Source: Gammaproteobacteria bacterium (GTDB lineage: Bacteria > Pseudomonadota > Gammaproteobacteria > CAJXQU01). From it: a DNA stretch of 64,000 nucleotides. The notes beneath the pieces are model-generated. The model saw only the letters and a list, made by a program, of their open reading frames with translations. It made no database searches and was not told the DNA's origin. Position 1 is the stretch's first letter. Each line of letters opens with the position of its first letter. The position numbers and the translations under genes are program-made. Positions 9,910-13,518 of this stretch are shown here, piece after piece. The DNA lies in the NCBI GenBank assembly GCA_965238175.1, contig CBDEGZ010000003.1, positions 736,001 to 800,000 on the forward strand. The letters run 5' to 3'.

Positions 9910-10045
9910 ATAATAACAATTGGCCTATATTATGCTTAAAAACTATAACTTAAAACCTGCTAAGACCCACAACCGGAGAGTAAGATGAAAGCGAGCAATC
10001 TATTTAATCTGAACTCGGGATAAGGAATAAACTATTATTCTTATT

Positions 10046-11271
10046 TGTAGAAATTCAGATTTGATCTGACAGTTACCCAATTATCAGTAACCGACTGTCA
10101 GGTTAAGTTTAATTCACAAACTTTTCCTTCCAGATAGCTTGTCCGTCGATGAGTGTTTCCATCGGCGTCCTCCCGCAGCACATTTTGCCTTGGTGAGTTC
10201 GTTGAGTATTGTATTTGAGCAACCATTCGTCAAGGTCGAGTTGCAGTTCATCAATCGATTGGTAAATTTTCTTACGCAAAGCGACTTGATAAAACTCATT
10301 GAGGATCGTCTTATGGAATCGCTCACAAATACCATTCGTCTGAGGTGATTTGACCTTGGTTTTGGTGTGTTCGATATTGTTCAACGCCATATAAAGCTGA
10401 TAATCATGCTGGTCAGCTCGCCCACAATACTCCGTCCCTCTATCTGTCAAAATGCGCAACATAGGCAAACGTTGTTCTTCGTAGAATGGGAGGACGCGGT
10501 CATTGAGCATGTCAGCTGCCGTAATCGGTGTTTTAGTCGGGTACAGTTTCGCGTGAGCGACCTTGCTGTAAGTATCAACAAACGTTTGTTGATAAACCCG
10601 ACCAATGCCTTTGAAAGTACCGACATAGTAAGTATCTTGCGAGCCAAGATAACCAGGGTGTGCCGTCTCTATCTCGCCACAAGCCTCATCGTCGTCTTTC
10701 TTGCGTTCCATCGCCGCGACTTGAGACTCAGTGAGGATCAAGCCTTCACCAGCTACCTTATCAGACAATGCCTTCAGGCGATCTTTAAAGCAAGCAAGAC
10801 CATGACGAAGCCAGATACAACGAACGCCACTGGGTGAGACAAATGTTCCCCGTTTGCGCAGCTCGTTACTGGTGCGCGTTTGACCATGTGCGGGCTCTTC
10901 CAGTGCATACTCGAGCACAACGGTTTCAATAGCCGGGTCGATTCTGTTTTTAAGATTTGGGGTACGCCGATTACGATCAAACAAGGCTTCTACACCGCCT
11001 TCATCAGCCGCTTCTTTGTAGCGATAAAATGTATCTCTGGACAAACCCATCATCTTGCAGGCTTTTGAGACATTGCCGAGTTCTTCAGCGAGATTGAGTA
11101 GACCAACTTTATGTTTTATAACTTTGTCATTAGTATGAATCATGAGAGTTACCTCTTTGTGTTTTGATGTTTACGTTGCAGTTACATCAAAGCGGGTAAC
11201 TCTCACTAAATCAAGCGTCGCTACGCTCCGCTTGATTTAGTGATGTGTCAGATTGGGTCTAAACTTCTACA
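10046..11271 (-). mobile_element. IS481-family insertion sequence, 7-bp TSD TCTTATT
   Basis: 26-bp TIRs TGTAGAAATTCAGATTTGATCTGACA / TGTAGAAGTTTAGACCCAATCTGACA (20/26); TCTTATT at 10039-10045 and 11272-11278. Confidence 0.93.
10109..11143 (-). CDS. IS481-family DDE transposase
   Basis: N-terminal HTH (LNLAEELGNVSKAC..G.SRDTFYRY); DDE core SQDT, TDRGTEY, PQTNGICERF. Confidence 0.95.
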   Translation of the reverse strand: MIHTNDKVIKHKVGLLNLAEELGNVSKACKMMGLSRDTFYRYKEAADEGGVEALFDRNRRTPNLKNRIDPAIETVVLEYALEEPAHGQTRTSNELRKRGTFVSPSGVRCIWLRHGLACFKDRLKALSDKVAGEGLILTESQVAAMERKKDDDEACGEIETAHPGYLGSQDTYYVGTFKGIGRVYQQTFVDTYSKVAHAKLYPTKTPITAADMLNDRVLPFYEEQRLPMLRILTDRGTEYCGRADQHDYQLYMALNNIEHTKTKVKSPQTNGICERFHKTILNEFYQVALRKKIYQSIDELQLDLDEWLLKYNTQRTHQGKMCCGRTPMETLIDGQAIWKEKFVN

Positions 11272-11469
11272 TCTTATTGATTCAATAGTTTAACTTAAGG
11301 TTAAAGGGCTTCTATAGTAAGATTCTTCACATATGCTCAGAATGACAGATTTTCCCTATATTATTACCATCCAACTTGTTGAATCATAAAGAGTTTTAAA
11401 TTCTCTTATCCCGAGTTCATATATGGTCTCCTCCCGTATTGCAAGATAAAACATTCAGATAACAGGGAC

Positions 11470-11620
11470 AGGATTGCTGTCATATATACGGCCCTCAATG
11501 AAGTTTTCAACTTCTGACCTGGATGTATTACGCGCCTATTTTCCTTATCAGGTTATCGGTATTAGTTACCCCTGAGCTCGACAGGTTTTCAATAGGCTGG
11601 TTTGACCTGTTATGCCATCT
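11470..11620 (-). ncRNA. Predicted bridge RNA/seekRNA in the non-coding region downstream of the IS1111 transposase (ends approximate)
   Basis: RNA GCCUAUU...CGAGCUCA-GGGUAACUAAUACCG-AUAACCUGA...AAUAGGC (target loop), then ACAUC...GAAGUUgaaAACUUC...AUAUAUGA (donor loop); segments match the insertion site and the circle junction. Confidence 0.8.
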
Positions 11621-11665
11621 TTAGTTTTACCTTCGCAATTCGTTGAAATGATTTGTTCTCTCTAT

Positions 11666-12679
11666 TTAGGCCGGTGAGTAGTCATCACCAGAAACCGTTA
11701 TAGCCCAGGCCATTCTTGCCATTTTGTTGGCATACGCCACACACGCTCGATTATGCCCCCGCGTCTCAACTAAACGATTAATCCATTGACTCAGTTTATC
11801 GCCTTTCGTTTTGGCTCTTGATACCACGGCCTTCGCGCCTAGAATTAACAAACAACGAAGGTATTTATTGCCGCGTTTACTGATCCCCAGTAGCACCTCT
11901 TTACCACCACTACTGTACTGTCGTGGAACAAGTCCTAATGAGGCGGACACATCGCGCCCTTTGTGATAATGAGCGCCGTTTCCCACTTCATTAAAATACG
12001 CGCTCGAGACCATCGGCCCAAACCCTGGAATAGTTTGTAAGCGTTGGCAAATCGCATTGTTTTTTGCCGATTGAATGATCAATTGGTCAAATGTCGCAAT
12101 ACAGGCATCAAGTGATTGCCATTGTTCCTTTAGCTGGCGCAGTATCCTTTTGAAAGTAACGGACAACCGTTCGTTCTCATCACTTAATAGCAACGGGATA
12201 GATTGACGTAGGGTATTTAGGCCGGGACGAAGGCTAATGCCATATTCTGCAACAAGCGCTCTCATTTGGTTACATAATGCGGTTCTTTGTCTGACCGCTA
12301 AGTCTCTTGCTTTATGTTGTGCCTGGTTGTCTTGTTGCTCAACTGATTTAATGCCCACACTTTTTAAATGAGGTTGTTTCGCAGCAACGGCGATGGCCAA
12401 GGCATCGTTATAATCATTCTTATTGCCGATTAGAAATGCGTTAACATGCTGAGGTGGTAGTAATTTCACCTGATGTCCCTGTTGTTGTATCGCTCGGGCC
12501 CAATACTGTGACGTTGCACAAGATTCTATTGCGACTAAACAAGGAGGTTGAGATTGAAAAAAGGAGAGTACCTGCGCTCGCTTTAACATTTTCTTTTTGA
12601 TTATACGCCCTTGTTGATTACAGCAGACAGCATGAAATACGTTTTTTGCTATGTCTAACCCGATTGTTGTAGTCTTCAT
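11666..12679 (-). CDS. IS110-family recombinase (DEDD RuvC-like domain plus Tnp20 domain)
   Basis: IGLDIAK, AIES, KNDYNDA (DEDD); GLVPRQYSSGG catalytic Ser; ATG 12679 with an AGAGGAG RBS. Confidence 0.95.
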   Translation of the reverse strand: MKTTTIGLDIAKNVFHAVCCNQQGRIIKKKMLKRAQVLSFFQSQPPCLVAIESCATSQYWARAIQQQGHQVKLLPPQHVNAFLIGNKNDYNDALAIAVAAKQPHLKSVGIKSVEQQDNQAQHKARDLAVRQRTALCNQMRALVAEYGISLRPGLNTLRQSIPLLLSDENERLSVTFKRILRQLKEQWQSLDACIATFDQLIIQSAKNNAICQRLQTIPGFGPMVSSAYFNEVGNGAHYHKGRDVSASLGLVPRQYSSGGKEVLLGISKRGNKYLRCLLILGAKAVVSRAKTKGDKLSQWINRLVETRGHNRACVAYANKMARMAWAITVSGDDYSPA

Positions 12680-13319
12680 TTTGGTCTTCTCCTCTTTTGA
12701 TTGTGTGTATGTCAGTTCAATCATGGCACCTAGATGCCGTTAGGGGGAGGAGACCATCACATCAGGTTATTTATTAAGTGTCTTGAAAATGAAGGAATTA
12801 AATATATTTTTGGTGTTCCGGGTGAAGAGAACCTGGATATGCTAGAGTCATTATAAATGACTCTTCCATTGAGCTTATTCTTACCCGTCATGAGTAACCT
12901 GCAGGTTTTATGGCAGTAACCTTTGGCGTTTCCTTTTTAGGTCTACTAGCTAATCCTAAAAAAAATATTGGACATAGACGAGGCAGTATAAGTGTATAAT
13001 TAGGTCTAGCTATATTAAGAACTTCTGGTCTTCTAGAAACTATAAATCTCATCGGATTATTAGTTACAAACAATTAAAGGCTAATGACTTGTTTTTAATT
13101 CATCTTAAAAAGCTATCAAAGTAAAACCAGTGGAAATGTTTATAGCCTTCTATTTATGATTAGTTCTACGATAAGAACTATCATTTTACTCAGGATTTGA
13201 GTGAAAATGTTAGTTTTTCGAATCATTTTTCTCTTGTAAGTTTCTTTAGGACTAACACTTTTTGGCGCAAGTGCAATTATTTACATAGCGATCCTAAAAT
13301 AGTTGCCGTTAAATGTTAC

Positions 13320-13462
13320 TTAGTCATTTTACTGCTGCACAATTCATTGTTGATATTTTTGCTTTTCCTTGGAGAACTGATTATCCTTACCAAAGATTGG
13401 TAGATGTAGGATTTATAGCTGTGGGTATTGTTATTGTTGGGGGGCTTCAGGCTAACTTATGA
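13320..13462 (+). pseudogene. Possible remnant of an SMR/EamA (ArnE/F-like) small membrane protein
   Basis: Two joined frames read LIFLLFLGELIILTK/LVDVGFIAVGIVIVG, like the FLGE..S..K..G..LI..G C-terminus of that family. Confidence 0.35.
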
Positions 13463-13518
13463 TTTACTGACATGGTTAAATTGCCCCTTCTCCTGCGTCA
13501 TTATGAGCTTAATTTAGT

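Follow-up and report, generated by a model that had tools for sequence, protein, structure and literature searches.

What directs an insertion sequence (IS) into the terminal repeat of another mobile element, and can the address be read in the IS itself? The question is raised by an IS at positions 11,420 to 12,764 of a 64,000-nucleotide stretch of gammaproteobacterial DNA (GenBank contig CBDEGZ010000003.1, positions 736,001 to 800,000; referred to here as the window), which interrupts one end of what looks like a miniature inverted-repeat transposable element (MITE). The first-pass annotation of the window had proposed an RNA-guided IS1111 recombinase programmed against the ends of IS982-type elements. 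Our analysis indicates that the element is very probably an IS1111-family IS whose bridge/seekRNA targets the junction between the duplication and the repeat tip of IS982-type elements. This reading is carried by the anatomy of the element, a conserved RNA structure, covariation of guides with targets, a census of sites in the host genome and a preference for repeat ends.

The assignment to the IS1111 family, which ISfinder places within IS110, rests on the recombinase and on the architecture of the element (Table 1). The transposase matches the Pfam models PF01548 (DEDD_Tnp_IS110; 3.6e-16) and PF02371 (6.4e-20) and the NCBIfam model NF033542, "IS110 family RNA-guided transposase," at 302.8 bits (cut-off, 140). 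Published traits of IS1111 transposases are a length of 330 to 350 amino acids and a GL-P----S(t)G motif in the C-terminal domain; the protein analyzed here has 338 residues with PF02371 as its C-terminal domain, and it carries GLVPRQYSSG. An upstream ATG at 12724 would lengthen it to 352 amino acids, and the transposases of relatives align from residues 1 to 3 of the 338-residue form. The subterminal inverted repeats, ATGGTCTCCTCCC and GGGAGGAGACCAT, are perfect over 13 bp, within the 11 to 13 bp expected of IS1111 elements. With boundaries taken from empty sites, a 7-bp extension lies outside the left repeat and a 3-bp extension outside the right one, which is exactly the rule given for the family in PMC11187229. 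Downstream of the gene lies a non-coding region of 246 nucleotides (11420-11665), compared with 82 nucleotides upstream of the ATG at 12682, and it contains no minus-strand open reading frame of 50 amino acids or more; a long non-coding region downstream of the gene is the IS1111 arrangement according to sources that include PMC11208160. Together, the profile matches, subterminal repeats, extensions and downstream region bear out the IS1111 identity first proposed for the element.

Excision of the element restores TAAATA-ACC^TGAACTCGGGATAAG on the minus strand, where the caret marks the insertion point. Since uninterrupted TAACCTGAACTCGGGATAAG copies occur elsewhere in the genome, the insert is exactly 1,345 bp long and is not accompanied by a target duplication. 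The target rebuilt in the first-pass annotation was correct.

The MITE-like element in which the IS lies is bounded by IS982-type repeats and flanked by a 6-bp TATTTA duplication; its interior is single copy in the genome, and only its terminal repeats are shared. The link to the IS982 family comes from other copies of the IS1111 element. A recurrent right flank of these copies, TGAAYTCGGGATAAG, is the terminal repeat of a separate multicopy MITE of about 215 bp, and the same sequence bounds full-length elements encoding a 299-amino-acid IS982-family transposase (L022:2855-3754, minus strand). That protein matches PF13612 at 260.8 bits and the IS982-type DDE model NF033520 at 279.6 bits (cut-off, 130). 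A second IS982 subfamily in the genome carries TGAGATCGGTTTAAG.

The downstream non-coding region is predicted to contain the core of a bridge/seekRNA, a structured RNA with two loops. We aligned the window copy with 35 of 80 relative loci, namely those in which both subterminal repeats were found far enough from the locus ends. Six helices comprising 28 pairs were drawn from the fold of the window copy and from inspection of this alignment, an origin that favors the proposed structure somewhat; 97.3% of cells were paired over the 28 pairs, 20 of which showed changes on both sides. None of 500 shuffles was as good, and when the partners were slid by 1 to 3 columns, pairing fell to 30 to 42%. 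The scaffold was nearly invariant across the 36 elements and was interrupted by two hypervariable blocks, which flank a small hairpin within an internal loop and coincide exactly with the two guide segments proposed in the first-pass annotation. The GCCUAUU/AAUAGGC stem that closes this loop and the GGUA/UACC hairpin inside it had been proposed from the window alone; both occur in the minimum-energy fold and show compensatory changes. A conserved CCU/AGG stem was located at alignment columns 35-37 with 77-79. Other minimum-energy helices, CCUG/CAGG and a CCU/AGG pairing that involved the guides, were specific to the window copy and were rejected.

The second internal loop may be the donor-binding loop, which would read the ends of the IS itself. 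Its UACAUC segment (11527-11522) is complementary to the left end of the IS, GATGT(G/A), and its AUAUAUG segment (11487-11481) is identical to the right end, ATA, plus the core TG. Inspected by eye across the alignment, ACAU accompanies a left end GATGT and UCAU accompanies GATGA, while AUAUAUG or AUAUACG occurs mostly with TG or CG opening the right flank, L079 and L098 being exceptions. A closing stem for this loop could not be established from the alignment. A terminator-like hairpin found by a scan at 11481-11467 was not kept as a hairpin in the relatives and was discarded.

Both guide segments were found where they had been proposed. The left guide, AUAACCUGA at 11556-11548 on the minus strand, matches the left target arm plus core at 9 of 9 positions. 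The right guide, CGAGCUCA at 11580-11573 on the same strand, complements TGAACTCG at 7 of its 8 nucleotides; at the remaining one, a C faces an A. In 100,000 mononucleotide shuffles of the 246-nucleotide region, the 9/9 match arose 194 times, the 7-of-8 complement 7,546 times and both together 18 times. The constrained part of the left 9-mer is UAACC plus UG only, as position -6 varies among the 24 sites described below, and its last A belongs to the constant GAUAAGG scaffold. The complement of the top strand stands 5' of the match to the bottom strand, the same segment order as that reported for IS1111 seekRNAs in PMC11187229.

The guides covary with the targets. In the 36 aligned elements, the 5' block was compared with the reverse complement of the first 9 nucleotides of the right flank, and the 3' block was compared with the last 7 nucleotides of the left flank plus 2 nucleotides of core, the best ungapped offset being allowed for cognate and non-cognate pairs alike. 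The right guide matched its cognate flank at 7.47 of 9 positions, against 4.38 of 9 for non-cognate flanks, and the left guide matched at 6.86 of 9 against 4.25 of 9. The summed cognate score of 516 was reached in none of 20,000 permutations (mean, 316.5; standard deviation, 12.3; maximum, 371), which ignore the relatedness of the elements. The targets concerned are highly diverse and include CGTAGGT^CGGATTAGC, which resembles a repetitive extragenic palindromic (REP) sequence, TCGATTT^TGGGGACTT, CCTTCGC^CGCAATGAC and GTAGGGT^CGAATTCAT. Thus, both segments change with the flanking target, as the first-pass annotation had suggested should be checked. A group of relatives at 50 to 55% amino acid identity (L050, L079, L092, L094, L096, L100, L108 and others) lies at CGTAGGT^CGGAT(T/A)AGC..., beside palindromes such as CGGATTAGCGAAGCGTAATCCG; the targets of this group look like REP-type repeats, a known class of IS1111 target.

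The host genome contains 24 complete copies of the IS, all full length and 100% identical, and one further copy cut by a contig start. All 24 complete copies lie at AACC^TGA in a single orientation. T stands at -5 in 23 of them, -6 is unconstrained, and +4 to +8 read mostly ACTCG. Together with the empty sites, these copies show insertion that is specific for site and orientation and makes no duplication. The left flanks of all 24 copies differ upstream of -6, and there are 18 distinct right flanks, in keeping with the earlier suggestion that the guide covers several end variants. A regular expression applied to the right arm placed 15 of the 24 copies in IS982-type terminal repeats. The remaining nine were assigned by reading their flanks: one is clearly a variant end (TGAACCCAGGATAAG); five probably represent remnants, of which three have TGAAC abutting an IS481 end, one reads TGAACTCAAGATTCA and one lies in a tiny element of two facing repeats; and three lie elsewhere. 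On the best explanation of these sequences, the element is probably active, or was so very recently.

Occupancy of the sites follows both guides. IS982-type ends with a (T/A)AACC left arm were occupied in 15 cases and empty in 4 (n = 19), compared with no occupied site among ends with another left arm, a class that includes seven recognizable ends (three TAATC and one each of CAACC, GAACC, TAACT and CTATC) and into which the loose regular expression also takes about 30 unrelated sites. One of the three empty TAATC ends is the unused end of the MITE in the window, which reads TTAATC-TGA at 10004-10012 and matches the left guide at 7 of 9 positions. The first-pass annotation had suggested that this mismatch could explain the choice of end, and the counts fit that suggestion. 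Over all (T/A)AACCTGA sites, occupancy also rose with agreement to the right guide across +4 to +8: where 3 or more of these 5 positions matched, 17 of 49 sites were occupied, and where fewer matched, 7 of 473 were (Fisher p = 4e-14; sites not independent).

The same association is found in other genera. Four relatives at 68 to 78% amino acid identity (L032, L033, L037 and L057) keep the same left guide, and all lie at TAACC^TGA; L033, L037 and L057 have U at the guide position facing +4. In Pseudoalteromonas sp. ASV78, L057 (78% amino acid identity over its best-aligned stretch) interrupts, at ACC^TGA, an IS982-family IS (tblastn, 62% identity over 292 amino acids) flanked by TACATA, and in Paraglaciecola algarum G1-23, L037 (68% amino acid identity) lies in a MITE of about 240 bp flanked by TAAATA. 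In both, 6-bp duplications flank repeats that begin at ACC. The targets of the Colwellia (L032) and Shewanella frigidimarina KCTC 23109 (L033) relatives look like IS982-type ends; about 1.2 kb of sequence on the right of each revealed no inverted-repeat partner that would confirm this. A search for further copies in the Pseudoalteromonas and Shewanella genomes found one copy in each. A search of a plasmid collection with the whole IS returned no near copy, just short matches (5 to 8%) to enterobacterial IS110-family genes.

These relatives also help to place the junction that is read. The host's own copies leave it ambiguous whether the IS982-type repeat has its outer boundary at ACC, AACC or TAACC, as the duplications are near-palindromic (TAnnTA). 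On the evidence of the MITE in the window, L037 and L057, we place the start of the repeat at ACC, next to a 6-bp duplication, and the left guide therefore reads three repeat bases and two duplication bases (TA). The readable duplications (TATTTA, TAGTTA, TAACTTA, TACATA and TAAATA) all end in TA, so that the TA of the target is effectively constant.

Table 1. Positions of the IS1111-family element, its predicted RNA and its target in the window
Feature	Positions	Strand	Basis or detail
Complete IS1111-family insertion sequence, 1,345 bp	11420..12764	-	Boundaries set against uninterrupted TAACCTGAAC sites
DEDD transposase/recombinase gene, 338 amino acids from MKTTT	11666..12682	-	Pfam and NCBIfam profile matches
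Left subterminal inverted repeat ATGGTCTCCTCCC (transposase sense)	12745..12757		Followed by 7-bp extension TGATGTG, 12758-12764
Right subterminal inverted repeat	11423..11435		Followed by 3-bp extension ATA, 11420-11422
Predicted bridge/seekRNA core, two-loop structured RNA in 3' non-coding region	11458..11619	-	Alignment of 36 elements
Target-binding loop module (predicted)	11534..11597	-	Closing stem 11597-11591/11540-11534, CCU/AGG stem, hairpin 11570-11558; fold and alignment helices 2, 3 and 4
Right-target guide UCGAGCUCA, complementary to top strand TGA(G/A)CTCG(A)	11573..11581	-	Variable block in the alignment
Left-target guide AUAACCUG (plus A of scaffold), identical to top strand of left arm and core	11548..11556	-	Alignment and covariation
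Putative donor-binding loop	11481..11527	-	UACAUC and AUAUAUG, inner stem and hairpin between; alignment helices 5 and 6
Right arm of target, interior part of IS982-type terminal repeat (TGAACTCGGGATAAG, minus strand)	11405..11419	-	Rebuilt site
Left arm of target: repeat tip ACC (12765-12767) and 6-bp duplication of the MITE, TAAATA (12768-12773), minus sense	12765..12773	-	Matches TATTTA at 10001-10006
MITE-like element bounded by IS982-type repeats, interrupted by IS481-family IS	10007..11419		About 183 bp of its own: 10007-10045, 11279-11419, 12765-12767
IS481-family IS nested in the MITE	10046..11271	-	7-bp duplication TCTTATT (10039-10045, 11272-11278)

Several observations weigh against RNA-guided targeting of IS982-type ends. 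Three of the 24 copies lie outside any IS982-type end by our own classification: one of them is within an IS481-family element, and the other two are in unique sequence. The right guide places C opposite A at +4 in 19 of the 24 sites. Of the 61 TAACC^TGACAGTC sites internal to IS481 copies, one is occupied and 60 are empty, which shows that left arm plus core can occasionally suffice. The sole perfect right-guide site in the genome, TTAACC^TGAGCTCGGGG, is empty and lies 27 bp from an occupied site. Nor do the 24 copies represent 24 independent events, since three right flanks recur two to three times and IS-mediated rearrangement is evident. With respect to the RNA, a search of 10500-13500 against Rfam 15 (E <= 1) returned nothing relevant; its two matches (mir-630 and psRNA2) were at chance level and fell on the IS481 end, outside the non-coding region. 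Three sequencing runs from a single study contain this DNA, and none of them is recorded as RNA. On the minus strand of the integrated copy, a promoter scan detected no site of sigma-70 type.

The most serious alternative is that the element is RNA guided but aimed just at TAACCTGA and a few further bases, a short motif that happens to be common in IS982-type ends; no evolved relationship with these elements would then exist, and the enrichment would mirror nothing but the distribution of the motif. The guides span only about 13 nucleotides; the conservation of sites beyond +9 (GGATAAG) lies under no guide and reflects the shared ancestry of the repeats, and three of the 24 copies lie in other sequence. 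However, L032, L033, L037 and L057 keep the left guide at TAACC^TGA, and L037 and L057 do so in elements bounded by IS982-type repeats, so that the association with IS982 has outlasted the divergence of hosts and sequences. In addition, the guide of the element, GAGCUCA, is one change from each of the two repeat families resident in the genome, TGAACTC and TGAGATC. We consider chance aim at a common motif to be unlikely.

It could also be argued that the target is chosen by the protein or by the DNA structure of the inverted repeat, and that the complementarity of guide and target reflects common descent of the non-coding region and the targets. We infer from sequence that the RNA is made and bound by the recombinase, and the permutation tests carry no correction for phylogeny, both of which leave some room for this explanation. 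Yet the scaffold is constant in 36 elements while both loop segments track very different targets, among them CGTAGGT^CGGATTAGC, TCGATTT^TGGGGACTT and GTAGGGT^CGAATTC, and in other IS1111 members the seekRNA is essential and reprogrammable, according to PMC11187229. Selection by protein or DNA structure is accordingly very improbable. That the shared flanks are an artifact, with TAACC and TGA belonging to the IS or with copies spread along with their flanks by duplication or recombination, is hardly credible: three right flanks do recur and rearrangements between IS copies are visible, but uninterrupted TAACCTGAACTCGGGATAAG sites already contradict it, as do the 24 different left flanks, the 18 distinct right flanks and boundaries that follow the 7/3-bp extension rule.

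Targeting by a bridge/seekRNA suggests the following cycle for the element. The IS would excise as a circle, whose joined ends would form a near-consensus promoter, TTGCAA-17 nt-TA|TGAT, as read from the sequence; junction promoters have been reported for the IS1111 family. Transcription from this junction would yield the recombinase together with the two-loop RNA. The 5' segment of the target loop, UCGAGCUCA, would pair with the top strand on the right-hand side of the crossover (TGA-R-CTCG), and the 3' segment, (A)UAACCUG, with the TG core and the bottom strand on the left-hand side. Jointly, the guides would specify about 13 nucleotides, TAACC-TG-A(A/G)CTCG, which correspond to the last two bases (TA) of the IS982-type duplication and the first 11 or so bases of the terminal repeat (ACCTGAACTCG...). 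With the donor loop paired to the joined IS ends, the DEDD recombinase would then insert the circularized IS between ACC and TGA, 3 bp inside the repeat, in a single orientation and without duplication. The expected outcome is an IS that resides chiefly within the termini of IS982-family ISs and MITEs; in this genome, most ends that match are already occupied by it. An IS982-type end that has received the insert would presumably be disabled.

The first-pass annotation described the element as a hyperparasite of IS982-type ends. The part of this description that stands is the preferred target, namely the junction of duplication and repeat tip; targeting is not exclusive, as the three copies elsewhere show. 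A stronger version of the idea would be that the clade is a dedicated hyperparasite of the IS982 family, that GAGCUCA is a guide drifted toward a generalist, that AATC variants are escaping and that insertion disables the end, in short an RNA-guided arms race. We put this forward as a tentative and rather doubtful possibility. If it were true, the guide would read a sequence that exists only after an IS982-type insertion (the TA of the duplication plus the repeat tip), insertion would split the repeat 3 bp from its end and so disable that end, and two transposons would be engaged in an arms race inside one genome, in a clade found in marine gammaproteobacteria and in the host.

The mechanism itself is not new, because bridge/seekRNAs are general in the IS1111 family and other members, IS4321/IS5075 and IS1383, reportedly already target the repeats of other elements. 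Partridge and Hall are said to have described in 2003 (J Bacteriol 185:6371) the targeting of inverted repeats at the termini of Tn21-family transposons by IS4321/IS5075. Like these, the present element belongs to the IS1111 family, has subterminal repeats and occupies one position and orientation inside the terminal repeats of another mobile element; their target is a Tn21-family (Tn3-type) repeat, whereas the target here is the repeat tip of an IS982-family IS or MITE together with two duplication bases. In Pseudomonas putida H, IS1384 reportedly has its inverted repeats targeted by IS1383 (Muller, Lauf and Hermann, 2001). Here the resemblance is the use of another IS's inverted repeat as a specific target, that is, parasitism of one IS on another; the host and the target IS differ, and that work is reportedly without guide RNA analysis.

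Bridge RNAs have been predicted in 93.0% of IS1111 elements, according to Durrant et al. 2024 (PMC11208160). The seekRNA and its function were shown experimentally for four members of the family, ISEc11, ISKpn4, ISPst6 and ISPa11 (Siddiquee et al. 2024, PMC11187229). As described there, the downstream region of these four gives an RNA of 70 to 100 nucleotides, with the same segment order, the same 7/3-bp extensions and no duplication, and natural retargeting occurs by replacement of both segments. Unlike the element analyzed here, they target a linear site, attC sites or REP sequences, and their RNA is experimental where ours is inferred. The IS621 bridge RNA likewise has a target loop and a donor loop, with one segment per strand around the core dinucleotide, but IS621 belongs to the IS110 group, carries the RNA in its left end with the segment order reversed and has very short subterminal repeats (PMC11208160).

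What is probably new is the use of IS982-type ends as the target, and the first-pass annotation overstated the novelty of the case: RNA guidance and the habit of entering the repeats of other elements were already established for IS1111. Judged by titles and abstracts, we found no report in print of IS982-family or MITE ends as an IS1111 target, and ISfinder or the supplements of PMC11187229 and PMC11208160 may record such a relative. The finding leaves the known mechanism unchanged. It brings IS982-family ISs and MITEs into the small group of mobile elements that IS1111 members colonize at the ends, and the target in this case straddles duplication and repeat. It also offers a natural experiment in how specific an IS1111-type guide RNA is, since one genome allows 24 identical copies to be set against several hundred empty near-matches. 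Comparison of these sites indicates that the 5-nucleotide left arm and TGA are absolutely needed and that one or two mismatches in the right arm are tolerated, an off-target profile that is useful for the engineering of bridge/seekRNA recombinases. For annotation, the finding accounts for truncated-looking IS982-type ends and for nested IS1111, IS481 and MITE sequences in the genome.

The IS481-family element nested in the MITE encodes a 344-amino-acid transposase that matches NCBIfam NF033577 at 279.1 bits (cut-off, 224). With 59 near-full-length copies at 99.2 to 100% identity, it is the most abundant IS of the genome. To the right of the MITE, positions 12780-12900 (...GGTGTTCCGGGTGAAGAGAACCTGGATATGCTAGAG...) look like a fragment of a coding region broken by stops and may be a gene remnant in an IS-rich stretch. 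At the other side of the IS1111 element, its integrated right end (11420-11444) and the flank (11414-11419) read TTGCAA-17 nt-TATGAA, directed out of the IS and toward the IS982-type element. They may form an outward promoter, which would be antisense to the transposase gene at full-length IS982 copies.

Individual loci in the host genome show the history of such insertions. At one of them (L024, G000:C3 393,936-395,340), a tiny element is made up of a facing pair of IS982-type repeats with about 20 bp between them; the imperfect repeat (TGAATTC) holds the IS1111 copy, and the adjacent empty repeat is the TTAACC^TGAGCTCGGGG site, the only perfect right-guide match in the genome. At another (G000:C3, approximately 1,050,196-1,054,152), one IS481 copy is bracketed by two IS1111 copies that are inverted relative to each other, with 37 bp of a MITE left on one side and its last 5 bp (GTTCA) on the other, from which it follows that the MITE was occupied at both ends before the greater part of it was lost. 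Three loci with differing left flanks share the junction TGAAC|TGTAGAAG, which suggests recombination among IS copies. Finally, IS1111-type remnants (L026-L030) occur at G000:C3 2,357,912-2,358,383, 1,154,717-1,154,798, 2,897,432-2,897,503 and 1,393,275-1,393,338; they comprise one partial copy with 79% identity and short left-end fragments, two of which face each other, and three of the left-end remnants abut TAACC.

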